From a virus (taxonomy: Duplodnaviria; Caudoviricetes): DNA of 64,000 bases. Position 1 is the first letter of the stretch. Every line of letters starts with the position of its first letter. Position numbers and translations under genes: made by a program. The stretch lies in the IMG/VR virus record IMGVR_UViG_3300030330_005091, positions 64,001-128,000 of that record. One strand, given 5' to 3'. Shown here piece by piece: positions 1 to 55,797 of the stretch. The notes under the pieces were generated by a model that was not told the DNA's origin, did not search any database, and saw only the letters and a program-made list of their open reading frames with translations.

Positions 1-70
1 AGGTAAAGATTGACCTCTCATCCAGTTCTTCGTTTAATAAAAAATCTCTCCATTGTGAATCTAGTGACAT
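1..70 (-). CDS. 5' end of gene running off the window (MSLDSQWRDFLLNEELDE...), putative virion-internal protein
   Basis: ATG at 70 preceded by GGAAGGA; W-x-x-F-L-L-x-E N-terminus resembles other ORFs here. Confidence 0.6.
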   Translation of the reverse strand, partial: MSLDSQWRDFLLNEELDERSIFT

Positions 71-168
71 ACTTGTTCCTTCCGTTATTGTTGTTAATAA
101 CAGGCTCTTTATAAATCTGTTCCTAAGCTTTTTAAGCTCAACTTTTATATTCCCCTGTCATATTATTA

Positions 169-1302
169 TTATCCTTTGCGTTTTTGCAGTGCCTCTTGTA
201 AAGCTTTCTTTACGAGTGCTTCAATTTGTTCCTTGGTTGGCTTTTTATCTTTTTTCATAGATTTTTCGATAGCCTTACCGCGCTTTTTCTCATAAGAAGA
301 AAGTTTTCCATCATCATCTAAATCAGCTTTGTCAGGATTTTCTAATTCTTCCTCAAGTTCTTCTTCTTCACGAAGTCTGTCAGGGTCTTGACGTCGAACC
401 CTGGGATCACCTTTGCGTTGTGCTGCGCCGCCTTCCTCAAGTTCTTCCTCTTCTTCAAGAGTTTTTCCAGGGGTTCTCGCCTTCTTAGCCTTGCGTTCTT
501 TTTCTGCTTTCTCGGCGGCGGCTTGCTGTTGGGAAGGTGTGAGTGAATCCCTGTAATCTCCACCGGGACCATAATCAGAGGAAATTTCTTCAAGAGTCTC
601 ATCATCGTTTTCTGCGGCTTCATTTTTTTTCTTTTCGTCATCGCGCTTGCCAGCACAGTGTGCTTCATCAAGCTCTTCTTCCTCGTTAATTTCTTCTTCA
701 ACGGACTCTTCAACTGGCTCTTCGGTGTTTTCATCAACAGTTTCAGCAGTTGCTTCAACCTCTTCTTCTTGAACTTCACCGTTACCGTTGAACTCGTTAA
801 ACTCTTCGAGAGTGTTAAATTTAAAACCCCAAGCTTCCGAAAGAAGCTGAGTTAATTCTTTGTTTTTCCAATCTTTTGTAGACATCTTGTTATCTCCTTT
901 TTGTAGATGTTCGTAATAAATAGTACCTTTGCAACTGTCTTCCCAGTCTCTAAAAACTATTGACGCTTGATAAGCTTGAATTTCCATTGTTCTCAGATGA
1001 GAATCCTTCTGTGCATATCCTTGTTCTCCGAGATCCGACGTGTTGTCAAATTGACCTTTACAGTTTTGTGTATGATGCATCAATTCATGAGATAAAGACC
1101 TCATAATATCTTTAGGATGACGCTTCCCAATATAAATGGTAATTGATTCATTTTGTGGATCGTAAAATCCAGTTTTTCCCATAGGGTTGTTAGCTTCATT
1201 GTTGTCGTTCTTTAAAAACAACCGTGGAACCCTATCAAAACCCATTTGCTTTTGTGCAAACGGCATAAACTGTTTAATAAGTGATTTTAAAATATCAACC
1301 AT
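169..1302 (-). CDS. HEXXH zinc-metallopeptidase domain fused to acidic scaffold/head-core-like region (possible internal start at 885)
   Basis: RSLSHELMHHTQ...E motif; E-rich C-terminal half with many L/I-x-E sites. Confidence 0.65.
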   Translation of the reverse strand: MVDILKSLIKQFMPFAQKQMGFDRVPRLFLKNDNNEANNPMGKTGFYDPQNESITIYIGKRHPKDIMRSLSHELMHHTQNCKGQFDNTSDLGEQGYAQKDSHLRTMEIQAYQASIVFRDWEDSCKGTIYYEHLQKGDNKMSTKDWKNKELTQLLSEAWGFKFNTLEEFNEFNGNGEVQEEEVEATAETVDENTEEPVEESVEEEINEEEELDEAHCAGKRDDEKKKNEAAENDDETLEEISSDYGPGGDYRDSLTPSQQQAAAEKAEKERKAKKARTPGKTLEEEEELEEGGAAQRKGDPRVRRQDPDRLREEEELEEELENPDKADLDDDGKLSSYEKKRGKAIEKSMKKDKKPTKEQIEALVKKALQEALQKRKG

Positions 1303-1633
1303 CTAAGAAAACTTCCTTTTGTTTATCAGAATACCAAATATACTCTAAATAGTTACCAAATGGGTCTTTTACATAAACTCCTATTGTTCCATCCCTATGT
1401 TCGACAACAGTTCCTTTTTCAGTTGGTAGATCTTCTTTGTTTTCAACTAAAATTCCAATATGAGCCCATGGGTAATGTTCCTTATCGATAAGCGCTATAT
1501 TTGTGTTTTTTACAGTCAATCTAATATACTTCTCATCTCTAAATGTAACTTTTGCATTTAAATGTGAAATATACCATTCTTCTGCTTCTTCTAAATTATC
1601 TACTAATAATGCAATGTGATCAACTATTGACAT
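1295..1633 (-). CDS. VOC/glyoxalase family protein
   Basis: DHIALLVDNLEEAEEWY ... HIGI ... VYVKDPFGNYLE. Confidence 0.85.
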   Translation of the reverse strand: MSIVDHIALLVDNLEEAEEWYISHLNAKVTFRDEKYIRLTVKNTNIALIDKEHYPWAHIGILVENKEDLPTEKGTVVEHRDGTIGVYVKDPFGNYLEYIWYSDKQKEVFLDG

Positions 1634-1892
1634 TTTCTATTTTTACTCCTGTTTTAGATACTAATCTTAAGCTTAGTGAAAAGTGTTCTATTTCTTTTTT
1701 TGGCCCTTGTAGTGGAACGACTGTGGTTATTGAAACAAGCCTGTTTTGTCTTATTTCATTTCTTGTAGAAGTTATAATGCCATAATTGTGGTTCCAATCT
1801 TGTTGAACATCATCCCAAGTTGACCATTCTACAATATCGCCAATAGAAAATTTTTTTGATACAAGACTTCCAAAGCTTTTATCAGTGCTCAT
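1620..1892 (-). CDS. small SH3/KOW-like (IGDIV) protein
   Basis: FSIGDIVEW...YGII motif. Confidence 0.6.
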   Translation of the reverse strand: MSTDKSFGSLVSKKFSIGDIVEWSTWDDVQQDWNHNYGIITSTRNEIRQNRLVSITTVVPLQGPKKEIEHFSLSLRLVSKTGVKIENVNS

Positions 1893-2073
1893 TGTAGGTA
1901 ACCATCCAAGAACACACTCCTTCTAACAATAATTTTTTCATTGTATATTGTGCTTCATCAATGTTAAAAAAAGGACCTTCAGAAGCTACAGTGGCATTTT
2001 CTTTTTTAAAAACTAGAAACACTATTTTGTCACCATATTCTTCAGATATATACTTTCTATTTTTGCCGCCCAT
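1882..2073 (-). CDS. hypothetical protein
   Basis: ORF in operon, CTATTTA motif just upstream. Confidence 0.55.
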   Translation of the reverse strand: MGGKNRKYISEEYGDKIVFLVFKKENATVASEGPFFNIDEAQYTMKKLLLEGVCSWMVTYNEH

Positions 2074-2095
2074 GCCATAAATAGCACAATTGTTA

Positions 2096-2992: not shown

Positions 2993-3580
2993 TTAATTTT
3001 CATCGACCACATTTTCGGCAATATCTTCGGCATACTTTACTTTTCTTGCTCTAATTTTTACTTTTGGATATTGACTAGACAAGGCTTCTACAGCATCAAC
3101 ATTCTTACCAGAGTCATCAAAAAATAAAACATCGGTTGCTCCGTTTTCAATTCTATTAGCGACCCAATCAGCTTTAGCTTGGGGGTCAGATGTAGCTAAC
3201 AATTCAAATGTAATCTTGGAGGTGTCTAAACCTATACTCTCAAGATAATCTCTAATTGCTCCTTCAGCAGCAGGGTCTCTTGCAGTCAATATCGCAATTT
3301 CTCGACCCTCAATGCCTGCATTTAAAGCATTGCGGATTATATTGGTAATTTGTTTGATTTCTCTCGGGTTTATAACTTCATCAAATTCAGAAAAATCATA
3401 TACGTAATTTGGATTAATTTTGTGAGTTGCGTATTCTCCAGGTGTCATTTCTATTTTCTCACCTGTATCTAACGTAATGTGAATATTTGAATCTGACTTT
3501 GCAATTGTATCATCAAAATCAAAAACGCGAAGTTTTGATTCGTTTAAATATTCTCGCCAATTTTCAAGTAGGAGTTTCAT
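2993..3580 (-). CDS. HAD-superfamily phosphatase with MKLLLENWREYLNE leader
   Basis: FDFDDT motif I, ILTAR motif II, K motif III, FFDDS motif IV. Confidence 0.8.
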   Translation of the reverse strand: MKLLLENWREYLNESKLRVFDFDDTIAKSDSNIHITLDTGEKIEMTPGEYATHKINPNYVYDFSEFDEVINPREIKQITNIIRNALNAGIEGREIAILTARDPAAEGAIRDYLESIGLDTSKITFELLATSDPQAKADWVANRIENGATDVLFFDDSGKNVDAVEALSSQYPKVKIRARKVKYAEDIAENVVDEN

Positions 3581-4043
3581 CGTCTTTTCCAATATTTGAG
3601 CGTTCTTGCCAGTCTGCAGAAACAGAATCCTCTTCTATTGGCCCGCCTTTTGCCCATGTTCGACAAGCTCTAGCAGAGTGACATTTAAAGTGATGCATCC
3701 AACAATACCCTAATATGCCATCTTCGTCAGATGTTTCACCAGGCATACATTCTAACATCCTTGGTGAAATGTCAAATGCCACACAATTACCGCAAACAGA
3801 TTTTTTTGCAGCTTCTTCGGTTGTGTTCCAATACTCCGCAATATTTTTCCAATAATCGGCCGGCTCTGTAACATTTAATGGTCCGTATTGAATATGTTCA
3901 GCATGGATCGCTGAGTCTCTGTTTTTGGTGTTTAGTTTCAAATCTTGAGTGGCTGGTGGGCATATTAGTCCCTTTGTTTTTTTAATAAGTATTTTTATAT
4001 CTTCATTTAAATACTTTCGCCAATTTTCAAGTAAAAGTTTCAT
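3543..4043 (-). repeat. 38-bp direct repeat (3543-3580 and 4006-4043) encoding MKLLLENWRxYLN
   Basis: 34/38 identical by manual comparison. Confidence 0.85.
3564..4043 (-). CDS. Cys-rich protein with MKLLLENWRKYLNE leader
   Basis: CGNC...C...YCWMHHFKCHSARAC..W. Confidence 0.7.
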   Translation of the reverse strand: MKLLLENWRKYLNEDIKILIKKTKGLICPPATQDLKLNTKNRDSAIHAEHIQYGPLNVTEPADYWKNIAEYWNTTEEAAKKSVCGNCVAFDISPRMLECMPGETSDEDGILGYCWMHHFKCHSARACRTWAKGGPIEEDSVSADWQERSNIGKDDETPT

Positions 4044-8971: not shown

Positions 8972-11521
8972 TTAGTTAGAAAGAAAACGCTTCCAAGTCT
9001 TAACTAAGTATTCATTTAATCCCGCGGTGGCTGGACTTTCTTGTTCTGGCCATTGTCCTGAGTTGATTGTGGCTGCTATTTGTGCTAAAGTCTTATTGAA
9101 TACCACAGTAAGGTTATCTTCATCGTCCATATCGCCCTCTACAAGCTCTTTAAAAAGAGTAACCATCTCATCGGGTTCGTCACGGTTTACTGAGAAGGTA
9201 ACGGTAACTCTGAGTTCTCCTTCAACATATTTATTTGCAAAAGCTTTCATTGATAAAAAGTAATCTGTATTTACTGTTTGTTGCGGTTCTTGTAACAAAT
9301 TACGACGTAACTGAATTTTATAATCGCGAGAATTCAAAATGTCTTTTAAAACATCTTCATTCATTTTAAATTCTTCAACATCATAGTCAAACGAGTATGA
9401 CGCGTATGTTTCATAACTATCTTCATAATCTCCGTCAGTTTCTACATCCCACTCATATGAAGAAACTTCACCGTTTTCAACATCTACAGCAAAGTTTATG
9501 TATTCGCCACCTTGTATAAATCCTTCGCGTGCAAAATAATTTGTAAGTATTTCTTTGAAGGCATCGCGCTTGTCATCTATAATAGTATCGACTGCTGCAC
9601 AAAACTCTTCATACTCTTCGTCTAATGCAAGAAAACGGCCTCCTAACTCTGGGTGTTCTGGCTCTACATCACAATGCCATACAATCAAATCTTCGCCGCG
9701 GCGATTACGTGTTCTTTGCAGATAAGCACCATCAGTCTTTAACAAGTCGCCATATATCTCGTTAATTACATCTGGAGAATACATTACAGCACGATTAACA
9801 GCATTTGGTAAACTATTCCAATCACTTGCCTCCCATTCAATTTGAATTTTTGCTCCTACGGCGATATAAACACCACCATCACCGTCGTCTTCTACATTAT
9901 ACTCAACCTCACATGCCGCCATATGGTTGTTCCAATAATCTGTTCTTCCGCTGCAATAATTTTCGTATTGCTGAACAATATCACCAATTAAATCAGCATC
10001 TAAATTATCTTCAGTGTCTGTGTTTTGTTTCATATTGCCGCTAACGAGAGCTTCTGGACCTAATAATTGTCTCATCAACTTTTCACGACCAGCAGCATTT
10101 GCAGTATCTTCGTAAGAACCACCAAAAATCATAAACCTATTGAGATCAATAATATTATTATCATTTTTAGGCATGTTTTCAATTACTTCTTTTTGATTTT
10201 GTCTAGCCCAATCAGTAACTCTATTTAAAATTCCTGGAATACCTGCGCCATAAATACGAGTTTCTGGCATACCAACGTCTATACCGTCATCATAACGTTT
10301 GGGAGCGTCTGTATCATAGTATCTTACGTGCCTAATGCGTGAACGAGAAATAGGCTCTATAGTTCCTGCATATTGACGCTTATCATCATAGAATATTTCA
10401 CCATCTTGCATTTCCTCTTCAATTTCATCCATGGACATATCACTTCGCCCACTCCACTTAACAATATCTTCGGTTTCCACCACATATGCTACCGCTCCGT
10501 GGCCCTGAGCCTCAGCTACAGCGCATTTATAGTAAGATTGATAGGCACTTGTGCGACTTGCGGGTGAATGACATGATGTAATGTTGTCAAAATCACTCAT
10601 TCTTAGCACATCAATAGGATGACGAGTAATAATAATAGAATATTTGTCATTTGTAATATTTTTTATCTCATTTTTAATATATCCGGCATTTTGTTGCCAA
10701 TATTTGGCTGATTTGGGCATTTTAGTAACTTTTCCGGCTTGAGCATCCTCATATCCACCATAATACTTGCTTAAAAAACCCATCGATGCAGTTCCGGCGT
10801 ATAATTCGAGACCATTCATGATTTGGTAGAGTCGTTTAAGCTGCTCGGTTGTAAGAGCCTTTTGTATCTGTCCTACAGAAAAATTTACACTCCAAGAAGC
10901 CGAATTAGGTTTTTCATAAACGTGTTTAGCAACTATTTGCCGCATTTCTTTGAAATCTCGCAACAATTTGTCTAATTTCATGAAATATTTGCCAATTTTC
11001 ATCTGAAATTTCTTATTTACCTTCTTTTGTGGTGTACCATAGTCTGATAGTGAGCTTACAAAGTTCTCATCGTTCTCGATGGAGTTCTCTGTCCATTCTC
11101 TTTGGGCTGAAACAATGCCTTTTTCCCAATCGACTTGTAATTCAAATTCCTGATCTAACATTTTGGCAAACTGGCCAAGTTCAGACTCAGTATCCATTGT
11201 TGGAAACGGTATAATGGTGCGCATATTGCCATTAAAAAGGTTATTTAGCGGTAAATTTGCTGGTTCAAGTTCATCTAAGACATCTTCAAGCACACGCATT
11301 TCGTCTTCGGTGATTTCACGAAGCACTTTTTCTTCATAAAGTTCAATTTCTTCGTTTTTACGCTTCTTGCGCTTCTTTTTCTTGGACTTTTTGACACAAT
11401 TCGGATACATTTTTCCGAACATCTTCTTCATGCCCTTTTTTTCATAGCCTTTCCAGCATTTTTCTTGCAAATTTGCCAATAATTCAGTAGTATTGGCTAA
11501 AATTTGTTCATCAGTAGCCAT
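8972..11521 (-). CDS. large multi-domain virion-type protein (849 aa)
   Basis: N-terminal CWKGY..MKK..PNCVK basic motif; RHPIDVLRMS..SCH; acidic C-terminal region similar to 43863-47402. Confidence 0.7.
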   Translation of the reverse strand: MATDEQILANTTELLANLQEKCWKGYEKKGMKKMFGKMYPNCVKKSKKKKRKKRKNEEIELYEEKVLREITEDEMRVLEDVLDELEPANLPLNNLFNGNMRTIIPFPTMDTESELGQFAKMLDQEFELQVDWEKGIVSAQREWTENSIENDENFVSSLSDYGTPQKKVNKKFQMKIGKYFMKLDKLLRDFKEMRQIVAKHVYEKPNSASWSVNFSVGQIQKALTTEQLKRLYQIMNGLELYAGTASMGFLSKYYGGYEDAQAGKVTKMPKSAKYWQQNAGYIKNEIKNITNDKYSIIITRHPIDVLRMSDFDNITSCHSPASRTSAYQSYYKCAVAEAQGHGAVAYVVETEDIVKWSGRSDMSMDEIEEEMQDGEIFYDDKRQYAGTIEPISRSRIRHVRYYDTDAPKRYDDGIDVGMPETRIYGAGIPGILNRVTDWARQNQKEVIENMPKNDNNIIDLNRFMIFGGSYEDTANAAGREKLMRQLLGPEALVSGNMKQNTDTEDNLDADLIGDIVQQYENYCSGRTDYWNNHMAACEVEYNVEDDGDGGVYIAVGAKIQIEWEASDWNSLPNAVNRAVMYSPDVINEIYGDLLKTDGAYLQRTRNRRGEDLIVWHCDVEPEHPELGGRFLALDEEYEEFCAAVDTIIDDKRDAFKEILTNYFAREGFIQGGEYINFAVDVENGEVSSYEWDVETDGDYEDSYETYASYSFDYDVEEFKMNEDVLKDILNSRDYKIQLRRNLLQEPQQTVNTDYFLSMKAFANKYVEGELRVTVTFSVNRDEPDEMVTLFKELVEGDMDDEDNLTVVFNKTLAQIAATINSGQWPEQESPATAGLNEYLVKTWKRFLSN

Positions 11522-11524: not shown

Positions 11525-12370
11525 TCACTTACCTTTGCGAGAATATTTACCTGAACATTTCCATTTTTGTCTAGAAAGACACAATGGCGTCCCTCTATCT
11601 TTGCCAGAGCAATCTTTTCCGTGAGATTTCATATCTCCATACGATCTAGCACAATATGCATTGCCTTTTCCAGTCCCAGGCTTAATTCTTGCACCCCCGC
11701 CTTTAGCTTTTCCAGCTTGACCATACGAAACACACTTACCCTTTACTCTTCTAGCAAATTTTTTACCCTTAGATGGCTTGCAAGCTTTTTTCTTTTTCTT
11801 TTTTTCTAAAAGTTCATCATCTTCTTCAATCAACCCGTAATAAAGTGATTCTTCAAGGTAATTTTCGAGTTCTTCTTCCATATATGATTTATTCTTTACA
11901 ACTGCAAAAGGATCAAGTTCTTCTGTTTCATCTTTTTCACTTTCATCCATGCCTCCACCTTCAATTTTTTTCAATAATGCAGCCATTAGCGGTGTTCCGA
12001 TAGCCAAACCAGCAAGCATAGGTGACATTTTTACCAATACATTATAAACAGTTATGAGGTTTTCCAGTGTAAGGTTCTCAACACCTTCTTTCATTCCATC
12101 TTTGTTTTTTAAGAGAGGAAGTAAGCCTGCAACTGTTGAAGCAACATCATCAACCTCTTCTTTATTCGCCTTTGGGCCTAAAAGATCCATAAAGAGCTGG
12201 ACTAATTCGCCCCTCATTTCAGTTTCAAAACCAGGGATACCGCCGGCACCTGCCTGAGCCATTTTTTGAGCTAGCTGTGCTCGTGGATCCATGCTTGGAT
12301 TTTCTTTTAATTGAGAAATTTCTTCTAAAATAAGCTGTTTAAGTAAATTGCTGTCAAGTTTTGTTGTCAT
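11525..12370 (-). CDS. head-type protein with basic Cys-rich C-terminal domain
   Basis: LLKQLILEEI leader; VSYGQAG...YCARS...WKC. Confidence 0.65.
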   Translation of the reverse strand: MTTKLDSNLLKQLILEEISQLKENPSMDPRAQLAQKMAQAGAGGIPGFETEMRGELVQLFMDLLGPKANKEEVDDVASTVAGLLPLLKNKDGMKEGVENLTLENLITVYNVLVKMSPMLAGLAIGTPLMAALLKKIEGGGMDESEKDETEELDPFAVVKNKSYMEEELENYLEESLYYGLIEEDDELLEKKKKKKACKPSKGKKFARRVKGKCVSYGQAGKAKGGGARIKPGTGKGNAYCARSYGDMKSHGKDCSGKDRGTPLCLSRQKWKCSGKYSRKGK

Positions 12371-13209
12371 CCTTTTTTTCCTTTCTTAGATTTTTTGCCC
12401 CACTTGCCTCTTTTACCGCATGCTCCTGGGGTGGGGCGACACGAAGGATATTTTGAACGCTTTTCTCCGCCTGATCTTCCGCATGCAGAGCACTTTTTAC
12501 GTCCTGTTTTCTTGTCTTTGCGGCATGTGTTACAATCAACCCAGCCGCTTTTCTTGCCTTTGGCTCCTTTTCGCCCAAACCAATCACGCAATGAGGTTTC
12601 GGACGATGGCTTAGCCGTCAGTTTTCTTTTTTTTTTACGTTTTTTCTTTTCATCCAAGCTGTTCATTAAAATAACATCACCATCTTCGTGGATTTTAATA
12701 TTGCTAGCGGAATCAATTACCTTTTTAATGTCTTTTTTAGATGCTTTAGTGTGTTTTTTAAGTGCGTCCATGCCTGCTGCGCCGCCTTCTTTACGCAAAG
12801 CGTCGATAACTTTTGATTTTAAATTCGATATCTCTTTTTTTTCTTCTAAAACTTCAAAAAGAGTGTAATAAATAAGATCATCAATAGAATTAATCGGTTC
12901 TGCTTGTCTTTCTTGCAAAACTTGTGTTAATTCATCTTCAATAATAGCTTGAAGATGTTCTTTCTTAGAGTTACCCCAGTTTTTAGCGCCAACATTACGA
13001 CACTTAACAAGAGCACCAGAAGCATATGCACTTGGCCAGACCTTGTAACGTGATTTTACCTTATGATAACATGCGTCTTTTTTACCTTTCTTAGCTTTCT
13101 TTTTAGCGCGCTTCTTTTTTCGTTTACGCTTAGCAGACTTAGATGATTTTTCATCTAAGTCTTCCATTTCTTCTGCTAATTCGCCATATAAATCATTCAT
13201 TACTATCAA
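12367..13209 (-). CDS. basic Cys-rich protein of T4-like phage type
   Basis: KKDACYHKVKSRYKVWPSAYASGALVKCR and LRDWF..GWVDC..YPSCRP motifs. Confidence 0.7.
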   Translation of the reverse strand: MIVMNDLYGELAEEMEDLDEKSSKSAKRKRKKKRAKKKAKKGKKDACYHKVKSRYKVWPSAYASGALVKCRNVGAKNWGNSKKEHLQAIIEDELTQVLQERQAEPINSIDDLIYYTLFEVLEEKKEISNLKSKVIDALRKEGGAAGMDALKKHTKASKKDIKKVIDSASNIKIHEDGDVILMNSLDEKKKRKKKRKLTAKPSSETSLRDWFGRKGAKGKKSGWVDCNTCRKDKKTGRKKCSACGRSGGEKRSKYPSCRPTPGACGKRGKWGKKSKKGKKG

Positions 13210-13651
13210 ATCCTGCTATTTTTAGAGCTTTCTCCAATAAATAGATCGGTATTTCACTATTGGCAATGTCTTTTATTTGTTCAACAGTTGCCCACCTCCA
13301 ATCATCATGCTCTACTTGCCCAGTATGTGGATTTGGTTTTTTCACATCAACGTTTCCGGACCACTTTTGAGTCAAAAAATAATACTTTTTTGGCTTTGGC
13401 ATACCAAGATACACCAAATTATCTGTCTGGCAAAGTAAATTAGTCTCTTCATCGAGTTCGCGAACTGCCCCTGATTCTATAGATCGGTCTTCAGTATCAA
13501 TATGACCACCAGGCAGAGTCCACTGTCCTTCTCTCTCATCAATATTTGAGCGTCTAATAATTAAAAATTGTTGTTTATTATTGAGACAAGCAACAACACC
13601 TACAATCTTTAGCTCATTCTCTGTTAAATAATTTTCCCACAATAGACTCAT
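13193..13651 (-). CDS. NUDIX hydrolase
   Basis: PGGHID...AVRELDEETNL Nudix box. Confidence 0.9.
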   Translation of the reverse strand: MSLLWENYLTENELKIVGVVACLNNKQQFLIIRRSNIDEREGQWTLPGGHIDTEDRSIESGAVRELDEETNLLCQTDNLVYLGMPKPKKYYFLTQKWSGNVDVKKPNPHTGQVEHDDWRWATVEQIKDIANSEIPIYLLEKALKIAGFDSNE

Positions 13652-14371
13652 TTATTTACATGCTCTAGGTTTCTCTGGCATGCTGTCACAAACTGTCTTA
13701 AGAGCAAGTTCCATATTTAAATTCTGTATTGGTGCCACCCAAATCATATTTTCTTGTGGTAATCCGTTTTGTATATCAATACCCCACAATATTCCAATTG
13801 CTTTACCATCTTGATCGTATACTAGAGAACCACTACACCCAAACCAACCGTATGTGTTTAGCAGCATTTGAACACCAGCAGCCGGGTCTGTTTCATAACC
13901 TGCCACATAACCCCTATAAGTCATTAAATTGTGCCATGATGGATAACCTGAATAGGTAATTTCTGTTCCAACCTGTGTTAGCTTTTCGGACGGCTCCCAT
14001 TTAATTCCTTTTTGGTGATCAAAACTTTTTGGCAAGTAAATTACAGCAATATCGTGCAAAGGATCAGAATAAACAAGAACTCCAAGTCTTTGTTCACTCA
14101 AAGTCCTAATCAAATACGTAGTTCCTAAATTTGAATCAGCAACATGTTGCGCTGTTAAAACTAACTGTATGTCCTTATATTTAACTAAGCCGCCTGAGCC
14201 ATGTCCAGTGTGCGACATTACCTTAACAGCGGATTCCCTTGCTCTTTTTTCGATTGAAGTCATCGTGGAGCTAACTTCAATTGGCTCTGTTTTATAATCT
14301 TGTGTAGTAACCGTTGTAGCTGGTGTTGCTGCAATTAAAAGCAAGCAAATAGCAGATAATAATATTCTCAT
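13652..14371 (-). CDS. trypsin-like serine protease with signal peptide
   Basis: LTAQHV, DIAVI, GCSGS triad. Confidence 0.85.
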   Translation of the reverse strand: MRILLSAICLLLIAATPATTVTTQDYKTEPIEVSSTMTSIEKRARESAVKVMSHTGHGSGGLVKYKDIQLVLTAQHVADSNLGTTYLIRTLSEQRLGVLVYSDPLHDIAVIYLPKSFDHQKGIKWEPSEKLTQVGTEITYSGYPSWHNLMTYRGYVAGYETDPAAGVQMLLNTYGWFGCSGSLVYDQDGKAIGILWGIDIQNGLPQENMIWVAPIQNLNMELALKTVCDSMPEKPRACK

Positions 14372-16125: not shown

Positions 16126-16323
16126 TTAGTTGTTTATTGTAATGTATTGACCACGATTTTCACGCACAAGCCAAATATCTTTTGCTATTTTAGGATAGCG
16201 CACAAGCATCATATCTGTCTCTTGATCGACACTCAGCACGTAACCTAGAGAGCGATCATTGCGAAATTCATCTCTAATCCAAGAGCCGATGCTAGCGTTT
16301 TTATAAAACGATTTTTTAATCAT
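16126..16323 (-). CDS. small SH3-like protein
   Basis: IGSWI...LGYVL...LVRY. Confidence 0.5.
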   Translation of the reverse strand: MIKKSFYKNASIGSWIRDEFRNDRSLGYVLSVDQETDMMLVRYPKIAKDIWLVRENRGQYITINN

Positions 16324-39144: not shown

Positions 39145-39387
39145 TTATTTGAATGATGAGCACCCTTTACAGTTTGTGTGCTTTCTAGAATTATGTTCTT
39201 TAGCAGTTAGCCTTATCTTTTTAAAATGAGAAACCTTATCTTCCAGTAGTTGTCCCTTAGATAAACACCTTATCATGTCTTTCTCCCAATTAAACGCACC
39301 ACAAAGCACTATTTCCATAGTGGGCTCATATAATAGATACTCGCCTGGGTAAATTTTAGATTTTTCATTTATTTCGTCAAACTTCAT
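39145..39387 (-). CDS. hypothetical protein
   Basis: ATGA-coupled; IYPGEYL, C-terminal CKGC. Confidence 0.6.
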   Translation of the reverse strand: MKFDEINEKSKIYPGEYLLYEPTMEIVLCGAFNWEKDMIRCLSKGQLLEDKVSHFKKIRLTAKEHNSRKHTNCKGCSSFK

Positions 39388-40310
39388 TTAACACTCATTA
39401 GCCTATCATATGCATCATACTTCATATCGTTTAATTTTTGTAGTGCTTCTTCTCTTCTTAAAATTTTAAACGCTATATTTTCAGGAGAAAATTCTTGTGC
39501 TGGACTATCCAGGCCTGCTCTCCGCATGCGTCTAATTTTATCTTTCAGTCTTTCAACACTCTTTAATACTGATTCGTATTTTCCACTGTCAAGAACATGC
39601 TGAAGCAGATTGATTTGTGTTTCTATGTCGTCGCTCTTTTTTCTAGCACAACTCATACTAAAATTAACAGCCGTTGAATCTGGTTCAACTACCCAAGATG
39701 CGTTGGTGATAGAATAAATGCCCGAAGACTTGTGGACATCTCCGACATTTTCCACATATATCTCAACCTCATAGCCGTATATCTTGATATTGTGGGTATC
39801 GTTCCATTTCATTCTAACTGCATCAAAAAATGATTTTACTAGTTCAGTATCCTCATCAATTTTATCAAAGTCTACAACAATGTGAAGGTCTACGTCAGAG
39901 TATTTTGACCAGTTGTAATTGGCAAGCGAGCCAGTGAATCTAATGTCTTCTATTTCAACTTCAATCTCAAGATTATCGATAAAATCATTTGCAATCTTAG
40001 TTAATCGACGTGATATGTTAGGATATAATCTATCGTGCAGCCAAAACTGTGGTTCTAGTTCGTCATTTTTTTCAAAGCTGTCTGCTCCAACCTCTTCCTC
40101 AAAACGAAGTCGGCTAGTTCCAGCTCTCTTTGTTTTTTTATTGTATGGTGCACCACTGGACAAGTTTTTGTGCCCAGCAATTGTTGAATATATATCATTC
40201 TTGCGACGTTGTTTTTTATATCGTTTCTGAGCCTTACTTTTGAAGGGGGTAGGCTCTCTTCTTTTTCGTTTTTTACGACCTTCGTTGATCAATGTTTGCC
40301 ATTTGTCCAT
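39384..40310 (-). CDS. Pol-beta-superfamily nucleotidyltransferase
   Basis: TGSLANYNWSKYSDVDLHI, VEIYV; MDKWQTLINE leader. Confidence 0.85.
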   Translation of the reverse strand: MDKWQTLINEGRKKRKRREPTPFKSKAQKRYKKQRRKNDIYSTIAGHKNLSSGAPYNKKTKRAGTSRLRFEEEVGADSFEKNDELEPQFWLHDRLYPNISRRLTKIANDFIDNLEIEVEIEDIRFTGSLANYNWSKYSDVDLHIVVDFDKIDEDTELVKSFFDAVRMKWNDTHNIKIYGYEVEIYVENVGDVHKSSGIYSITNASWVVEPDSTAVNFSMSCARKKSDDIETQINLLQHVLDSGKYESVLKSVERLKDKIRRMRRAGLDSPAQEFSPENIAFKILRREEALQKLNDMKYDAYDRLMSVK

Positions 40311-43862: not shown

Positions 43863-46800
43863 TTAAACTTGTTTTTGATAACTTAAAAATACTGGTAACT
43901 CAGATAGTCCTGATTTTTTAGCAAACCAAACGAGATCTTCGTTGCCTGTAATTTTAATTCTCCCATTTCTTCCAATCGCCAGAAACACTGGGGCCCTGGC
44001 GCCATTTCTAATAAATTCTTGGTATCTGCCTCTAAAGTCATTCATATCGCCCCTGTATTCTCTAGATATATACGGTTCCAATTCTTCCACTGGTATCATA
44101 ACATGGTAGCGCATGTCCGTGGTATCAGTGGGAGCGTCATACATCATAACGGAGCCCTCTGCCCAGTCATCTAATATTGTTTGTAATTGAGGTCGTGGAG
44201 TTTTTGTTTCTTTGCCATGTGTATATCTCTGTGCACCCAGGTTGCTGGCAACACCGCCACCAAAACCGTACTCTTGCAAGGATTGAATTTCGGAAAGCTT
44301 TTTCCCAGGTGTCACTTCAACGGGAGCGGACCAGCCTATACCGGGCCTATTTACAACAGTCACACCATCTATAGAATTCATGGTGGGAATTAGCTGTTCT
44401 TGAGCAAAAGTAAGACTTGACGCTTGCCCCTTAAGAGTGAATTTAACACCAAATCTAACGAATTCTCCACCAATAGTTTCTTTTGAGGCTTCAGATGTAA
44501 CAGTTGTGACGTTTGTGATCCCTCTTAATTGATCTTGAAGTTGTTTGGTTTTCCTTAATCTATCAGATGAAATTTTAGCATCTACTTCCATCTTGTATAA
44601 TCTTATATCCACATCTTCAACCAAGCTAGCTTGGCTGTTAATCAATCTTTCAATGCGATCAATCTGTGCTTCCATGCTTTCTTGCGCAGGTCTTGGTTCT
44701 CCAAGAGTTCCAGCCATTGTCTGTCCTTGTGCGAGGCGCATATTAACTGGTTGACCACCCATCATTTCTCTTTGGGCCGCGGCTAACTCACCAAACATAA
44801 CTGGGGCACCTGTATTGTTGTCAATTTGGCCCATATCGGAGTAAGAGCGAAAGTTGTTTTGTGATATTGGAATAAGAAACTTAGTGGCCATCACATATCT
44901 TTCAGCTTCCCCCATGTCAGAGTAATTGCTTTCAAACCATTGCAAGATGGTGACTATTCTATTCGCAACTTCACCAGTAGCACCATCAGCCTCAATTTTT
45001 CCGTAAACATCCATACCTCTGTTGATGAGATCTTGTATCTCTTGGTTGTCCATCACTTTGTCTTTACGTCTTTGTATGTTCTCCATCAGCCCATCAACAT
45101 ACGTGCCAATAACTTTGTCGGCTGCTTGGGTTACAAGCTCTTCGTGCTCGTTTAAATACGCAGCAATATCTTGGATAATTTCAGCTTCATCTGGCTCAGA
45201 CTCAGGACTAATGCGCATGCGATACAACCACTTGATACCTATGCTGGGATATCTTCTACTTCTTTGAGAGGAAAACGGACCACCATGATAGGTAACATCA
45301 GAAAACACAACAAAGTCTGTATCGTCTGCCAAGATCATAGTTGGATCAACGTCCTTGTATTGATCTCCAAAGTCAAAGCTTTGCTGGCCTTCTGGTGCGC
45401 GCTTAGACTTAATCTGTGCTGTGATACCTCTTGATAGTTCGCGGGCAAATGCGTTAGCGATAATAGGATCGTTAATACCTTGCTTGTTAGCAAAGCTGTA
45501 TCTCTGACCAAACCCAAACATTTCTCTCATCACAGCATCAGGGTTGATGCCCATGCGGTTGCCTGTTCCTGTTCCATACATTTGTGCTCTCACGTCATCA
45601 AGCGGTGGCTGTCCTGAGTATGTGTGAAGCGGCTGGCCGTCATCAGCGGTCCAGTCAAACTCAAGCATGCTGCCCTGTTGCTTTACATGCCATTTATCGA
45701 GGTTTGTCAGCTTCATCAACTCTTCTTTTGAGCGGTCGTAGGCAGTCTTTGCCATGTAACCACCTTCAGCAAGGTTCTGTCTAATTTGCTCCCTATAATT
45801 GTCGGCAGTATCTTCTTCAAATGCCAGCATGTTATCGACAAACTCATCAAACTCTGGCACATCACCATCGTCATCAACAGATAAATTTTGATTGGTGTAT
45901 AATGTTATTCTTAAATGTGCGGTGGGCTTTTCTGACCCAGCTGGCACGCCTGCGGGCTGCGCGCCGATGAGCATTACTAAGTCATATTCATAGTCGCCGT
46001 CATCTCCAGGCATCTCATACATCATGTCATCGACGCCAATTTCGTCAATAAAGTCACGCATTTTGCTGTATGTTCTTGGGATCTCTTCAAAGTCTTGCGG
46101 ATTTTCAGGGGGGCTGCCGGCTACGTAGCCGCTTTCGGTTTCTTCAATGCCAGTCCAGCCAAGGTTAATTTCAAAGCTATACTGAGCACTGGCATAGCAA
46201 TAAATGTCATGTGCATCCATTTCTTCTATAGTGTAACCAACGCTTCCATATTCAAGTTCGTCTTGGTTGTCAATATAGCGTTGTTCAACATTTGCACAAT
46301 AATCTTCAGCTTTCTCCATACGATCTTCAATTGAACCGTGGAAGCTGGCGTTGGTTTGACTGGCGAGGTATTCAATCATTTCTTGGATTGTTTCAACATC
46401 ACTTGAATGTTCACCTGTCTCTTCTACATTTTGGACATTATAATTGTTAATGAACCATGCGATATGATCCCAAGTCTCTTCGGGCGGTGCATCGTTTGAA
46501 CGACCCTTGATTTGATAAATAGTGCTCTCGTATTCGCTATAAGTCATTGTAATATAAGATGACGATTCACGGCGCTTACCTTGCTTCTTGCGGAGAGACA
46601 CAAGCACCCCACGGCTGTCAGAGCCACAGTGTCCCATTCGTGATGCCTCGACATCGCAAGAAGACACATTCAAATTGTACCAGTAGGAACCATCATCAAA
46701 TGTGTGCATGACAAACTCTGGATCTTCTTTATCTCGAAGGTATCTCTCAGCATATTCCTGTGCATCCTGAATGCTGTATTCATCTTTGATTAATTCATAG

Positions 46801-47402
46801 TTGGTAGCGTCATCATTAAGGAATGCGACAAGTTCCGAGTATTGGCTCAACCACTGGTGAAAAGCCTTAGTGTAAATTGAGCGTAGATACTCTTTAATGC
46901 TCTCGACCTTTTCGCTTGGAAGCCCTGCTTTGCTTAAGCCCTTAACAGCTTTCATGAATGCCTTACGCCACTGTCCCATAGGTTTGCCAACTGCATTGCG
47001 AATATTTTGAATAACAAATTTGACTTTTTCGTTTTGTTTTATTCTCTCGTCGTCATACATCTCCCGCTCTTTCTCTGGCTCGTCCATATTGTAGCTTGGT
47101 AATGTGCGGGCCTCTATATCATCGCCTACAGATTGGTGTTGTTTTATAACATATTGATCAAGTTGTTTGATAAGAAAAGACAGAACCTCATATCTGAATG
47201 ATTCGGTTGTATAATACCCAGCTATGGTGCCTCTAGATTGCTTCCATCCATTCGCAATATACATGCGGGCTTTCTCGGATGCATCAGGCATTGCGTCTTC
47301 TAAATAATCAATAACAAACTCTGGAAGACCTATATCTCTCAGCCCTTCTGTTAAAACTTCTTCACGAAGATACTCAAACCAATTGCCTGTAGAAATGTCC
47401 AT
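43863..47402 (-). CDS. large multi-domain virion-type protein (PcfJ-like domain; ParB-like C-terminus)
   Basis: EASRMGHCG...LVSLR...YQIKGRSND; C-terminal PVFL..GNEDL..AKKSGLSELPV; WFEYLREE leader. Confidence 0.7.
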   Translation of the reverse strand: MDISTGNWFEYLREEVLTEGLRDIGLPEFVIDYLEDAMPDASEKARMYIANGWKQSRGTIAGYYTTESFRYEVLSFLIKQLDQYVIKQHQSVGDDIEARTLPSYNMDEPEKEREMYDDERIKQNEKVKFVIQNIRNAVGKPMGQWRKAFMKAVKGLSKAGLPSEKVESIKEYLRSIYTKAFHQWLSQYSELVAFLNDDATNYELIKDEYSIQDAQEYAERYLRDKEDPEFVMHTFDDGSYWYNLNVSSCDVEASRMGHCGSDSRGVLVSLRKKQGKRRESSSYITMTYSEYESTIYQIKGRSNDAPPEETWDHIAWFINNYNVQNVEETGEHSSDVETIQEMIEYLASQTNASFHGSIEDRMEKAEDYCANVEQRYIDNQDELEYGSVGYTIEEMDAHDIYCYASAQYSFEINLGWTGIEETESGYVAGSPPENPQDFEEIPRTYSKMRDFIDEIGVDDMMYEMPGDDGDYEYDLVMLIGAQPAGVPAGSEKPTAHLRITLYTNQNLSVDDDGDVPEFDEFVDNMLAFEEDTADNYREQIRQNLAEGGYMAKTAYDRSKEELMKLTNLDKWHVKQQGSMLEFDWTADDGQPLHTYSGQPPLDDVRAQMYGTGTGNRMGINPDAVMREMFGFGQRYSFANKQGINDPIIANAFARELSRGITAQIKSKRAPEGQQSFDFGDQYKDVDPTMILADDTDFVVFSDVTYHGGPFSSQRSRRYPSIGIKWLYRMRISPESEPDEAEIIQDIAAYLNEHEELVTQAADKVIGTYVDGLMENIQRRKDKVMDNQEIQDLINRGMDVYGKIEADGATGEVANRIVTILQWFESNYSDMGEAERYVMATKFLIPISQNNFRSYSDMGQIDNNTGAPVMFGELAAAQREMMGGQPVNMRLAQGQTMAGTLGEPRPAQESMEAQIDRIERLINSQASLVEDVDIRLYKMEVDAKISSDRLRKTKQLQDQLRGITNVTTVTSEASKETIGGEFVRFGVKFTLKGQASSLTFAQEQLIPTMNSIDGVTVVNRPGIGWSAPVEVTPGKKLSEIQSLQEYGFGGGVASNLGAQRYTHGKETKTPRPQLQTILDDWAEGSVMMYDAPTDTTDMRYHVMIPVEELEPYISREYRGDMNDFRGRYQEFIRNGARAPVFLAIGRNGRIKITGNEDLVWFAKKSGLSELPVFLSYQKQV

Positions 47403-50547: not shown

Positions 50548-52125
50548 TTACTCCGTTTGAATGATGCCGTAGTTGGTAGTAATTAGTGTGCCAGCGCAAC
50601 TTGCAGCATTTTGAAGTGCTGTTCTTGTTACTTTTACAGGATCAACTATACCACTGTCGAATAATTTTGTCAACTCTTGAGTTTTAAAATTCCAACCACA
50701 GTCATCATCACTAGTTTCTAAAATTTTTGATATAATAATATCAGCAGATATCTGCCCTGAGTTTGTAGCCATTTGTCTTATTGGTTCACGGCATGCCGCT
50801 TGTATAACTGAGGCGCCTATAGCTTGATCCGTGCTGTTCGTGGTAACCACAAGAGAACTGCTTGCTCTCAGTAACGAGGCACCACCGCCGGCAACTATAC
50901 CCTCATCAAGCGCTGATCTAACAGCCTCCAAGGCATCTTCGATACGATGTTTTCTTTCGGTCATTTCAACTTCTGTTGAGCCTCCGACTCGAATAACCGC
51001 TACTCCCGAAGAGAGTCTGACGATCCTACCTTGTATTCTTTCACACTCATCCATTGATTCTGTTTCTTGTATTTGTGATTTTAGACTTTCAATTTTTGTT
51101 TCGACGCCTTCAAAGTCACATTCTCCGCCAACAATTGTTGTAAAATACTTACTGCATTCGATTGACTTAGCACTACCCAAGTCAGCTAATGTTACTTCGT
51201 TTAATTTTGTGCCACTCTCGCGGCTGATAAACGAGGCGCCAGTAGATATTGCAAGATCTTGCAGCAGATCTCTGCGTTCCTCTCCATAAAATGGAGCCTT
51301 GATCGCTGCTATCTTCAGCGTGCCACGCATAGCATTCATGATCATCGCTGCCAATGCTTGACCTTCAATATCTTCTGCAACAAAGATAAGTGGACGACTT
51401 TCTCTTGCGGCCATCTCCAAGATAGGCATGATGGGCTCAACAGCAGAAATCTTATGGTCTGTTACCAAAATAAGTGGTTCCTCATGTGACATGATTGATC
51501 TGCGCTCATCTGTTACAAATGCGCCAGCGGCATACCCTGCCTGAAATCTAAATCCTTCAGTTATATCAACAGATGTTTCAAGCGACCGAGATTCTTCGAT
51601 TGTGATTGATCCATCTTGGCCAACCTTATCAACAGCCATAGCGATCAGTTTGCCAATCGTGACGTCATTATTAGCGGAAATGGTCGCAATGTGTTCGATA
51701 TCCTCAATGCTCCGAATTGGGTGAGATAAGTCTTTTAGGTTCTTAACCACCTCATCGACGGCTAACAGAATGCCGCGCTGTAGCTCAGTAGGGGAGACAC
51801 CTGATGCAATAAACCGCTGTGACTCTCGCAAAATAGCACGCGCTAGCACTGTCGCAGTCGTTGTGCCATCACCAGCATCAGAATTAGTTTGCACTGCTGC
51901 TTGTTTGATAACTTGCACGGCTGCGTTTTCAATAGGATCTTCAAGAGCAACAAACTGTGCCACTGTCACGCCATCTTTTGTGACAAATGGGGTCTTACCC
52001 TTTTCTTGTAGCAGAACATTTCGACCTCTTGGGCCAAGTGTTGATGCAACATTGTCTGCTAAAATGTTGGCCCCTCTCATAATTTTTTGTTGTAGTGTTT
52101 GGTTGTCGTCGTATTCTCGACTCAT
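50548..52125 (-). CDS. groEL: GroEL-like chaperonin
   Basis: TLGPRGRNV, TKDGVTVA, GDGTTTATVLA, GIVAGGG, DPVKVTRTAL. Confidence 0.95.
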   Translation of the reverse strand: MSREYDDNQTLQQKIMRGANILADNVASTLGPRGRNVLLQEKGKTPFVTKDGVTVAQFVALEDPIENAAVQVIKQAAVQTNSDAGDGTTTATVLARAILRESQRFIASGVSPTELQRGILLAVDEVVKNLKDLSHPIRSIEDIEHIATISANNDVTIGKLIAMAVDKVGQDGSITIEESRSLETSVDITEGFRFQAGYAAGAFVTDERRSIMSHEEPLILVTDHKISAVEPIMPILEMAARESRPLIFVAEDIEGQALAAMIMNAMRGTLKIAAIKAPFYGEERRDLLQDLAISTGASFISRESGTKLNEVTLADLGSAKSIECSKYFTTIVGGECDFEGVETKIESLKSQIQETESMDECERIQGRIVRLSSGVAVIRVGGSTEVEMTERKHRIEDALEAVRSALDEGIVAGGGASLLRASSSLVVTTNSTDQAIGASVIQAACREPIRQMATNSGQISADIIISKILETSDDDCGWNFKTQELTKLFDSGIVDPVKVTRTALQNAASCAGTLITTNYGIIQTE

Positions 52126-52176: not shown

Positions 52177-52178
52177 GT

Positions 52179-53973: not shown

Positions 53974-54645
53974 CTAGATAATAATATCAGCGATCCCTAA
54001 TTCTACCGCTTCTTCTGCAGATAAATAGACATTTACTTTACGTTCTATCATTTTTTTAAGTTTTGCTCTTGTCAGTTTGGTTTCAGCAATTAGTGCATCG
54101 CAATACATGTCCTGTAACTGTTCTATAGCTTCTAATTCGTTCATCATGTTGTGAAGCGAGCCATGGTTGCCACCCATAACAGAGTGAATCATAACGCGAC
54201 AATTTTTGCCAATCTTGCGCTTGCCCTTGGTGCCAGACGCCAAAAGTAGAACGCCGGCGGACATTACTTTACCGAGCCCGATAGTGTGTATTTCGCTGGT
54301 CTCTTTTACTTGTCTAATAACATCATAGAGACCGAACATATCATCAGCATTGCCACCATATGTTGAAATATAAAACTCTATTGGTTTTCTCTTGTCTTCT
54401 TTTGTTAATTTGTTCATTTCATCCAGCACTAATAAGCCGTGAATTAGTTCTGCAATTTTTTCTTCATGAACATCAGCAAACAAACCTATAATTCTTAAAT
54501 CTGGTTCTGGTGGCGGGCCAGCTTCGTCATCCAGGCCCAGGGCTGCGGGATCTATCATAATAATTTTTTTCTCTTTATTTGATTTATCAGTAGATGTTGA
54601 ACCGCTCGAATCTGTTGTCAGTATCTCTTTTATTTTTTTAATCAT
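53974..54645 (-). CDS. clpP: ClpP-like protease subunit
   Basis: YISTYGG, GKVMSAG, MIHSV, YLSAEEAVELGIAD. Confidence 0.9.
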   Translation of the reverse strand: MIKKIKEILTTDSSGSTSTDKSNKEKKIIMIDPAALGLDDEAGPPPEPDLRIIGLFADVHEEKIAELIHGLLVLDEMNKLTKEDKRKPIEFYISTYGGNADDMFGLYDVIRQVKETSEIHTIGLGKVMSAGVLLLASGTKGKRKIGKNCRVMIHSVMGGNHGSLHNMMNELEAIEQLQDMYCDALIAETKLTRAKLKKMIERKVNVYLSAEEAVELGIADIII

Positions 54646-54657
54646 TAAAGTGTCCTT

Positions 54658-55047
54658 TTAATCTTTGAGTTGGCTGTTAGGTGTGGTGGCGTCTAGAAAT
54701 GCGATAGCGGAATCCCAGTCATCAAACAAGATGGCGGTCTTGAAATGTTCTGGGAATACTTTATTTATATCTCTAATTGCGTTTACTTTCAGATGCTTCA
54801 TATCATTTTCTAGATATAATTTAAAATTATCTATATCTCTTTCTGATGCATTTGATTTAATCATTCTTTCAATGCAAAACGTTTTAGCATAGCTGTAGTT
54901 TTCGATTGTCCTTACCATCATCATCAGCGAAGTTCTTTGAGCAGATCTTAACATGAATAGACTATTGCGTGCAACGCGATATATAAAAAATGTTCTATAT
55001 GTAAAAAATCCAAATAAAAAAACTAGGGCATATAGTAAAAATTGCAT
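54658..55047 (-). CDS. membrane-anchored hypothetical protein
   Basis: N-terminal TM. Confidence 0.6.
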   Translation of the reverse strand: MQFLLYALVFLFGFFTYRTFFIYRVARNSLFMLRSAQRTSLMMMVRTIENYSYAKTFCIERMIKSNASERDIDNFKLYLENDMKHLKVNAIRDINKVFPEHFKTAILFDDWDSAIAFLDATTPNSQLKD

Positions 55048-55055
55048 ATTAGTTC

Positions 55056-55095
55056 CAAAAAATAACCACTAGAGTATATAGCTCCAGTGGTTATT
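55056..55095 (-). terminator. rho-independent terminator
   Basis: minus strand AATAACCACTGGAG-loop-CTCTAGTGGTTATT then U-tract. Confidence 0.65.
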
Positions 55096-55122
55096 ATAAC
55101 TGCTCGTATTTATTTAGTCAAG

Positions 55123-55797
55123 TTATTTTGTTAATCTTTTGAGGATTCTTTCTGCCAATTGATCAACTAGCTTTTCTTTAGAGTCCTCTTGTTTAAGTCG
55201 CATTGCAACTCGACGTGCAACTTCAGATACAATTTCGTCCTCGGAAAGAGTAAAGTCTTCTTCATCTTCCATCATAGGATCTTCATCCTCATCCTCGTCA
55301 TCTGCTCCGTCGAGGTCAGCTGGGCCCGTATCAAGTGAAACATCACCTCCTTCTGGGGCCTCTGGCTCGGCTTCCGGTGCGGGCATATCTAAGGGATCTG
55401 CTCCCATGTCCATGTCGCCCATTGCATCTTCCTCGCCGGCTTCAACATCTACCCGATCTTCAATACCAAGCGCTTGTGCTACAGCCGCCACGACGTCGGC
55501 CATAATCTCTTCTCTCTCGGAAACGTCCAAGTCGCTACCTGCGTCGTCGTCTAAATCAACATCTGCATCGTCAGCGGCAAGGTCGACCTCTAACTCGTCG
55601 TTGTCTCCTGGCTCATCGTCCATCGAAACGTCCAACTCAGCCTCTGGGGCGGGATCACCCATGTCGTCCACGTCACGGTCGCCTGGCGCCATAGTGCCTC
55701 CGTATTCCTGGATTTTATCCTCACCAACGCTACCGATGTTAGCGAGTTTTAAAAATTTACGAACCTCGTGTTCGTTTAAAAGTGTTTTACGAGCCAT
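55123..55797 (-). CDS. highly acidic scaffold/head-core-like protein
   Basis: D/E-rich, LLNE leader, EVARRVA.RL helix. Confidence 0.65.
   Translation of the reverse strand: MARKTLLNEHEVRKFLKLANIGSVGEDKIQEYGGTMAPGDRDVDDMGDPAPEAELDVSMDDEPGDNDELEVDLAADDADVDLDDDAGSDLDVSEREEIMADVVAAVAQALGIEDRVDVEAGEEDAMGDMDMGADPLDMPAPEAEPEAPEGGDVSLDTGPADLDGADDEDEDEDPMMEDEEDFTLSEDEIVSEVARRVAMRLKQEDSKEKLVDQLAERILKRLTK

Follow-up and report, generated by a model that had tools for sequence, protein, structure and literature searches.

In silico analysis of a phage genome of 195,690 bp, held as a single IMG/VR virus record with a completeness rating of 100%, has identified short tags on about 15 unrelated proteins, several of them enzymes. 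These tags are probably this lineage's version of the capsid-targeting sequence (CTS) of phage T4, acting in targeting and then being removed by proteolysis. The stretch of DNA under study, called the window, has a length of 64,000 nucleotides and corresponds to positions 64001-128000 of the record; coordinates are those of the window unless given as genome positions, which are obtained by adding 64000. Nearly all genes of the record lie on the minus strand. The tags are real, widespread, portable, selected as peptides and confined to phages that possess a head protease of T4 type, and each computational test capable of refuting a T4-type capsid-targeting tag gave a result that favours it.

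The tags belong to two classes. Type 1 is 14 residues long, with variants of 10-11 residues, and is represented by eight copies, starting at window positions 3580, 4043, 13651, 40310, 47402 and 70 and at genome positions 181057 and 170954. Type 2 has the form M-K-I-T-K-x-Q-L-K-Q-I-I-K-E-E-L within a tag of about 22 residues and contains two [LI]-x-E sites; six clear copies start at 12370 and 16604 in the window and at genome positions 187076, 182698, 179974 and 179729, and to these may be added a weaker one at genome 170043 and an internal one at 12928-12954. According to the translations, the copies in the window end in L-N-E, L-T-E, I-N-E, L-R-E or L-V-E. Every type-1 copy has W and Y/F six and three residues before this Glu, and type 2 has Leu and Ile. 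The initial annotation had described a W-x-x-[YF]-L-x-E signal shared by the N-termini of unrelated enzymes. All peptides that it listed were found in the translations at their places and on the minus strand, and the signal itself is borne out far beyond chance by the counts within the genome and by the comparison of IMG/VR with cellular DNA.

Across the genome, the three frames of the coding strand contain six matches to the pattern W-x-x-[YF]-L-x-E and the other strand contains none, and five of these six matches are located no more than 17 residues from a start codon. Among the 258 called genes of the whole genome, W..[YF]L.E is found five times at the N-terminus and once internally (Fisher p = 4e-6), and the type-2 pattern [LI][LI].EE[LI] seven times and once, respectively (p = 3e-8). 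Both patterns were picked after the data had been seen and were therefore checked against independent IMG/VR and cellular data. A degenerate DNA pattern for the nine-residue type-1 core gave at least 133 matches in at least 117 stretches of IMG/VR; among the matches listed, the core is N-terminal in 129 of 133, nearly always within a 14-residue leader composed of M-K-[LI]-[LI]-[LFM] and the core. The same pattern returned 40 matches from 596 Gbp of prokaryote genomes, of which 36 are internal (e.g. in SecA and transposases), and the few N-terminal ones sit on short contigs of metagenome-assembled genomes. For type 2, about 150 of 160 viral-contig matches are N-terminal, with 112 placed exactly seven residues after Met. 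Its conservation extends to about residue 22, where 75 of 116 copies possess a second [LIVM]-x-E, and then drops to background; the type-2 genes in IMG/VR often form arrays of three to five adjacent small genes. A separate 10-residue form consisting of Met and the core (21 viral-contig matches) was discarded, as these matches proved, apart from two distinct cases, to be 14-residue tags in which position 5 is Met or another residue. A narrow profile based on the canonical tags of the viral contigs recovers just the three canonical copies of this genome, and the variant copies have been identified by pattern and orthologue evidence.

The 129 type-1 cargos from the IMG/VR matches listed form 62 BLAST clusters, and the tag is thus attached to at least 62 unrelated families. 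The conservation of the tag ends at the Glu, and the next residue is unconstrained. Ten HAD-like proteins have the 14-residue tag unchanged, with bodies 29-36% identical and an insertion or deletion directly after Glu14. Most telling is the comparison with a complete relative (G002, 195,459 bp): its NUDIX orthologue is 68% identical overall to the one here, and nothing but W, the aromatic residue, L and E is common to their tags; the nucleotidyltransferase-like orthologue in G002 carries the same 10-residue leader, followed by an unrelated linker that is 75 residues longer. The family of the 1179-residue protein, with at least 240 homologues down to 38% identity and a mean column identity of 48%, has invariant W8 and F9, and Y11, L12 and E14 are at least 90% conserved, which places W8, Y11, L12 and E14 among its best-kept columns. 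A second L-T-E|G site follows at residues 17-20, with E19 and G20 invariant, and the homologues with Asp or Lys at position 14 retain this second site five residues on.

The element might instead act as DNA or RNA, either as a translation-initiation or repressor site or as a recombination joint that shuffles cassettes, the peptide being a by-product. The leader DNA at 3539-3580 and 4002-4043, at the head of adjacent genes, is identical at 37 of 42 positions, the likeness stopping at the final Glu codon; the codon choice of the tag is skewed, and an insertion or deletion and domain swaps are found directly behind it. However, in the 116 distinct leaders it is the amino acids that stay constant and the codons that vary, with all six codons in use for Leu12, five for Arg9, and five different codons at each of the unconstrained positions 3 and 4, which are mostly Leu. 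Orthologues keep only four spaced residues, and the motif recurs at C-termini. A function as nucleic acid is thereby rendered very improbable. Recombination at the leader is likely a means of spread and not the function, and the two near-identical leaders are consistent with recent leader copying onto a new gene.

The tag sits as an appendage ahead of the NUDIX and HAD cores. The NUDIX fold begins behind it (Pfam match from residue 17, PDB NUDIX chains from residues 13-20), HAD motif I lies five to ten residues after it, and in the AlphaFold2 model of the 1179-residue protein (mean predicted local distance difference test score 76.7) a low-confidence helix of residues 2-16 stands apart from the rest of the protein. 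The tag helix is amphipathic, with a hydrophobic moment of 0.55, and a Sec or Tat signal peptide, with its basic n-region and unbroken hydrophobic core of at least 7 residues, is absent from the translations inspected, the longest hydrophobic run comprising four residues before Glu, Asn, Trp and Arg. Its amphipathic character would also suit a destination other than the capsid: a membrane, the replication compartment, a chaperone such as the GroEL that the genome encodes, or degradation. The tie between tag and capsid is, moreover, inferred from sequence. An address of this kind is nonetheless improbable, since it fails to explain the invariant terminal Glu at which conservation ends and the backup L-T-E behind it, and it fails equally to explain the mirror-image C-terminal form, the avoidance of [LI]-x-E and the residue match with T4 described below.

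The first ten residues of the T4 internal protein IPIII suffice for encapsidation; leader residues 4 and 7 are important in targeting and 8 and 10 in processing, and the protease gp21 cleaves after L/I-x-E (PMC9026906). Reading NC_000866 against these mapped positions, the functional residues are Tyr4, Phe7, Ile8 and Glu10; IPII and IPIII have one common 10-residue leader, and IPI has a related one of 19 residues. Counted back from the final Glu, the marine type-1 tag presents W, Y/F, L and E at the four mapped positions of T4, and the 10-residue form at 40281-40310 matches the T4 leader in absolute register as well. As to common descent, agreement is limited to the four functional positions and the register, in peptides that are too short for a homology statistic. 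The marine tag shares with the T4 sequence, carried by IPI, IPII, IPIII and Alt and removed by gp21, (i) an N-terminal position and a length of 10-20 residues; (ii) the L/I-x-E end; (iii) aromatic residues at -6 and -3 and an aliphatic one at -2, counted from the final Glu; (iv) portability across unrelated proteins; (v) the presence of a gp21-family protease in the phage. In contrast to T4, it has Trp for Tyr and a four-residue hydrophobic extension, exists in two classes and a C-terminal form, and is carried by cargo that includes recognisable enzymes. About 15 bearers per genome are found here, compared with roughly five to eight in T4, and the relatives add up to at least 62 cargo families.

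The enzyme expected to remove such a tag is encoded in the same genome. A gp21-type prohead protease gene is located at genome 171552-170947 (Pfam Peptidase_S77, E = 7e-35, exceeding the curated cut-off), with genes for a gp20-type portal (phrog_213, E = 1.6e-70) and a gp23-type major capsid protein (phrog_138, E = 1.5e-68) near it. Tagged genes occur in and beside this head module, at genome 170954, 170043 and 179-187 kb. An S77 protease is encoded by each of the 13 tag-bearing viral contigs with a completeness of 60% or more, and the two tag-bearing contigs without one are 28% and 53% complete. That the tag is a leader for a modifying enzyme, such as a radical-SAM or other maturase, is extremely improbable: no radical-SAM domain (PF04055) was found in the complete genome, with 14 of 14 control genomes matched, and the bearers reach 1179 residues with enzyme folds of their own. 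The head protease is also the only enzyme seen in every tag-bearing contig tested, no other family having been searched across the contigs.

Mature cargo that has met an [LI]-x-E protease and survived should avoid [LI]-x-E. This was analysed in the mature parts of the proteins, with one weight per BLAST cluster and [VA]-x-E as the control motif. The observed/expected ratio of [LI]-x-E is 0.77 for type-1 cargo (confidence interval 0.62-0.93, 56 clusters) versus 1.17 (1.10-1.24) for neighbouring untagged open reading frames, and the ratios of the control motif are 1.12 and 1.01, respectively. For type-2 cargo the ratio is 0.88 (0.71-1.07), and IPI, IPII and IPIII of T4 contain no [LI]-x-E in 349 mature residues.

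The avoidance bears on the possibility that the tags do reach the prohead, with bearers that are assembly or core components, cut up and expelled during maturation like T4 gp22, gp67 and gp68 instead of reaching the host. The type-2 bearers are small, acidic, without enzyme domains and clustered beside head genes, the three T4 proteins start with short helices ending in [LI]-x-E, and the 84-residue protein starting at position 70 has six internal sites. On the other hand, a scaffold role is implausible for the NUDIX, HAD-like and nucleotidyltransferase-like enzymes, and the avoidance of cutting motifs by type-1 cargo is the opposite of what is expected of a protein bound for degradation. As an account of the tags as a whole, this explanation is unlikely. 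The type-2 bearers may be core or scaffold accessories like gp67 and gp68, or further cargo. Their tag resembles the N-terminal propeptides of T4 gp22, gp67, gp68, gp24 and gp21, which are short helices ending in [LI]-x-E, and the bearers themselves resemble the small acidic core proteins whose genes lie next to the protease gene. In T4, however, these are single genes with dissimilar leaders, whereas here one near-identical 22-residue leader is attached to many unrelated small proteins.

A copy of the tag is also present at a C-terminus. The 849-residue protein (gene 8972-11521, minus strand) ends in a module at 8975-9019 consisting of an L-N-E site, five residues and W-K-R-F-L-S-N. The C-terminal arrangement [LIVMT]-[NSQD]-E, five residues, W-[KRQT]-x-[FYW]-[LIVMY] and 0-4 further residues is found in 118 of 120 homologues (45-97% identity), so that the copy pointed out in the initial annotation is both present and conserved, and the core W-[KR]-x-[FY]-[LI] has zero internal occurrences in 95,372 residues. 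With the site first and the helix last, the order is that which a removable C-terminal address would need. C-terminal processing has been described for T4 Alt and gp21 (PMC9026906). A second C-terminal Trp motif was observed outside the window in a 163-residue protein (genome 56951-56460, minus strand), which ends in I-S-E followed by L-W-K-N-Y-L-W.

The timing of expression was approached through promoter-like elements. The element ACTATTTA is present 27 times on the coding strand of the genome and never on the other, in the window for instance at 47429, 16629, 16104, 4291 and 42450 (minus strand). It lies ahead of the genes for the sheath, the baseplate wedge and the head-tail adaptor and of the scaffold-like gene, at a distance of 23-60 nucleotides, and it also precedes the gene of the 1179-residue protein (by 27 nucleotides), the gene at 16604 (by 25 nucleotides) and the small operon holding both canonical tags. 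ACTATTTA is a candidate late promoter unlike TATAAATA of T4; use of the latter was rejected, with six copies on the coding strand versus 15 on the other. Sigma-70-like promoters (TTGAC, 17-19 nucleotides, TATAWT) number nineteen on the coding strand versus one on the other and span genome positions 142542 to 36606 (in the window e.g. 61008, 58746, 55121, 52176 and 34410-21149), where they mark non-structural blocks, among them a mini-gene region that is richer in GC. For 15 of 16 tagged genes, versus 132 of 240 untagged ones, the closest promoter-like element on the upstream side is ACTATTTA (p = 0.0014). Equal frequency of the motif among early or replication proteins, which the initial annotation had regarded as incompatible with its proposal, was not found; the tagged genes are absent from the early-promoter and replication blocks.

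Taken in sequence, a tagged protein would be made late in infection, and its short amphipathic N-terminal helix would bind the scaffolding core of the assembling prohead. The shell would then enclose the protein, and the gp21-family (Peptidase S77) protease would cut after the Glu of the [LI]-x-E that ends the tag. The freed protein would remain in the head with the DNA and enter the next host at injection. The 849-residue protein would use a mirror-image C-terminal version, with the cutting site upstream of the targeting helix. The sequences show the tag itself, its position, portability and conservation as a protein, the protease, and the avoidance of the cutting motif; for the tagged proteins we infer that they bind the core, are cleaved, stay in the head and are injected, and their delivery to the host and a role there against defences are equally putative. 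The capsid-targeting or injection tag of the initial annotation is partly supported: the protease, the T4 register, the appended position, the promoters, the motif avoidance and the conserved C-terminal copy favour a T4-type capsid-targeting tag, and one of its supposed copies, MARKTLLNE, is not the same tag.

Several observations weigh against a capsid-targeting role. The co-occurrence with the protease is not discriminating, and the contigs may all come from one phage lineage. The match to T4 extends over four positions in an amphipathic helix, and convergence or coincidence could account for it. The small type-1 set of this genome shows no avoidance of [LI]-x-E (31 observed, 28.5 expected; ratio 1.09), the ratios in the same genome being 0.68 for type 2 and 1.19 for untagged genes in a sample that is too small, and the 1179-residue protein holds 14 internal sites. 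The promoter class is a sequence-based call, and the assignment to the nearest promoter bridges distances of up to 7.5 kb; among the loci from IMG/VR, association with ACTATTTA is weak for type 1 (10.9% versus 5.6%, p = 0.02) and absent for type 2. No cultured phage with the canonical tag was found among GenBank phages searched with the HAD-like protein, which gave one distant uncultured match, and with the leader DNA, which gave noise only.

The individual type-1 copies in the window, all on the minus strand, head proteins of different kinds. A canonical 14-residue tag (3539-3580) precedes a HAD-like phosphatase (gene 2993-3580), in which the motifs DxDxT, TAR, K and DDS are present alongside a sub-threshold Pfam match; a TTG at 3592 was rejected as the gene start in favour of the ATG at 3580. 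The neighbouring canonical tag (4002-4043) heads a Cys-rich protein of 159 residues (gene 3564-4043), whose orthologue in IMG/VR locus L088 bears the same tag. An 11-residue variant (13619-13651) heads the NUDIX hydrolase (gene 13193-13651; Pfam E = 5e-18). The 10-residue variant (40281-40310) heads a pol-beta-type nucleotidyltransferase-like protein of 308 residues (gene 39384-40310, start at 40310 or 40328), which possesses a G-S ... D-x-D signature and is marginally similar to the adenylyltransferase domain of DrrA/SidM (Pfam E = 2.5e-3, PDB E = 1.3e-3). Its basic linker is homologous to one that connects the canonical tag with a HAD domain in other contigs, and the orthologous basic linkers in four IMG/VR contigs bear the canonical 14-residue tag. 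Domain shuffling behind the tag was observed on comparing 39384-40310 with loci L045, L065, L079 and L097. At 29-70, a variant with one extra residue between the aromatic and L-N-E heads a helical protein of 84 residues, whose gene passes the left end of the window (genome 64070-63816). This protein may be a degraded core protein rather than cargo because its mature part contains six [LI]-x-E sites.

The largest bearer is the 1179-residue protein (gene 43863-47402), which begins with a type-1 tag at 47361-47402 (W8, Y11, L12, E14); tag and second L-T-E|G site together occupy 47343-47402. Searches of Pfam, PHROGs, the PDB by sequence, the protein Atlas and the PDB by Foldseek gave nothing usable, and Foldseek against BFVD gave weak matches of its model to ParB/Srx and PcfJ-like phage proteins, at E 2e-3 or worse. 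At residues ~233-306, the family has an invariant His, Cys, Glu and Arg, an M-G-H-C-G run and Q-I-K-G, a constellation which suggests an unrecognised enzyme. The weak matches recall the polyvalent and P1 Dar/DdrB proteins, which are large, late, carried in the head and delivered with the DNA, and possess ParB/Srx-type domains (PMC5512222). In phage P1, however, loading proceeds via DarA/Hdf and autoproteolysis, with no short shared tag. The type-1 bearers thus include NUDIX, HAD-like, nucleotidyltransferase-like and 1179-residue proteins, whereas the type-2 bearers are mostly small acidic proteins. The cocktail of nucleotide-acting enzymes proposed by the initial annotation is overstated: the NUDIX hydrolase is solid, but the HAD-like assignment depends on motifs and the nucleotidyltransferase on E values of about 1e-3, and for most of the cargo, in relatives as well as here, no function can be recognised.

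The second helix motif, proposed by the initial annotation as a mark of other open reading frames, is N-terminal in two cases within the window and internal in a third, all on the minus strand. The tag at 12302-12370 fits the IMG/VR type-2 consensus and heads a protein of 281 residues with a basic Cys-rich tail (gene 11525-12370). The tag at 16557-16604 heads a protein of 93 residues (gene 16323-16604), and the G002 orthologue keeps I-L-N-E at the same place. The third helix, at 12928-12954, is situated at about residue 83 of a 277-residue protein (gene 12367-13200), after a basic Cys-containing module, and is compatible with a cleavable polyprotein. In the region 11525-13200, which comprises two minus-strand genes and adjoins the tagged NUDIX gene, Lys/Arg-rich paired-Cys modules flank acidic stretches and the internal type-2-like helix; the modules look like protamine-like DNA-binding modules in cleavable polyproteins.

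The peptide MARKTLLNE, presented in the initial annotation as a further copy of the Trp tag, is a separate, family-specific conserved N-terminus. It occupies 55771-55797 (minus strand), ends in L-L-N-E and heads a very acidic protein of 224 residues (gene 55123-55797). The sequence M-A-[RH]-K-T-L-L-[NT]-E is nearly invariant across 120 homologues (34-71% identity), and this is the only tagged candidate with an early-type nearest upstream promoter. It is best treated as a class of its own.

Genes for the tail sheath, tail tube and baseplate wedge are also present in the record, and a GroEL homologue was observed at 50548-52125 (phrog_5725, E = 6e-139). The nearest relatives of the capsid protein and protease are those of Rhodothermus phage RM378, Flavobacterium phage immuto and Microcystis phage Mel-JY01, at 34-51% identity, by which the phage is placed as a distant uncultured marine relative of T4; a GenBank megablast with 20 kb of the window found no close phage. 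N-termini similar to the tags are present in these three cultured phages, with about ten candidates in immuto (vB_FspM_immuto). A 296-residue gene after the protease gene was considered as gp22 and dropped after comparison with immuto. The gene directly upstream of the capsid gene (genome 164057) is suggested to be the scaffold-like one. The immuto gene at 12925-14166 (locus L243, NC_055915), likewise directly upstream of the capsid gene, resembles it and occupies the scaffold position. It is annotated as "DNA polymerase phi-like", which is probably an artefact of an acidic low-complexity run.

Head-internal cargo cut by a gp21-related protease is also found in the giant phages phiKZ, 201phi2-1 and SPN3US, where many such proteins are cleaved after Glu, and where the paralogues gp53 and gp54 have an identical 15-residue N-terminus (PMC5694885). 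In contrast to the tags described here, the propeptides of their ejection proteins are mostly longer than 100 residues, the motif is S/A-x-E, and no single portable short tag has been described. The CTS as a possible general loading route for T4-like phages is an idea raised in a review (PMC9026906). The literature search found no paper with either tag string, none linking capsid targeting to marine phages, and none showing general CTS loading outside the T-even and giant phages.

Two CTS-bearing proteins of T4 indicate what such cargo can do: IPI inhibits a host restriction enzyme, and Alt reprograms the host RNA polymerase. The system of the marine phage most likely operates on a larger scale than that of T4, with two tag classes and a C-terminal form. 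Taken further, the injected proteome of marine "far-T4" phages might be readable from sequence, the Trp tag marking protease-resistant enzymes and large effectors for delivery with the DNA and the second tag small acidic head-internal proteins, alongside a mirror-image C-terminal form, with dozens to hundreds of effector families acting in the first seconds of infection; this wider picture is tentative, its chances falling a little short of even. If the marine tags work as those of T4 do, a simple N-terminal pattern would identify the injected proteins of abundant uncultured ocean phages, and the at least 62 families, with the NUDIX, HAD-like, nucleotidyltransferase-like and 1179-residue proteins among them, would amount to a list, ready for use, of candidate factors for anti-defence and takeover. 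Engineered cargo could be loaded by means of the tag, and the tag classes, the C-terminal form and the motif-avoiding cargo would bear on the evolution of a protease-linked address system.

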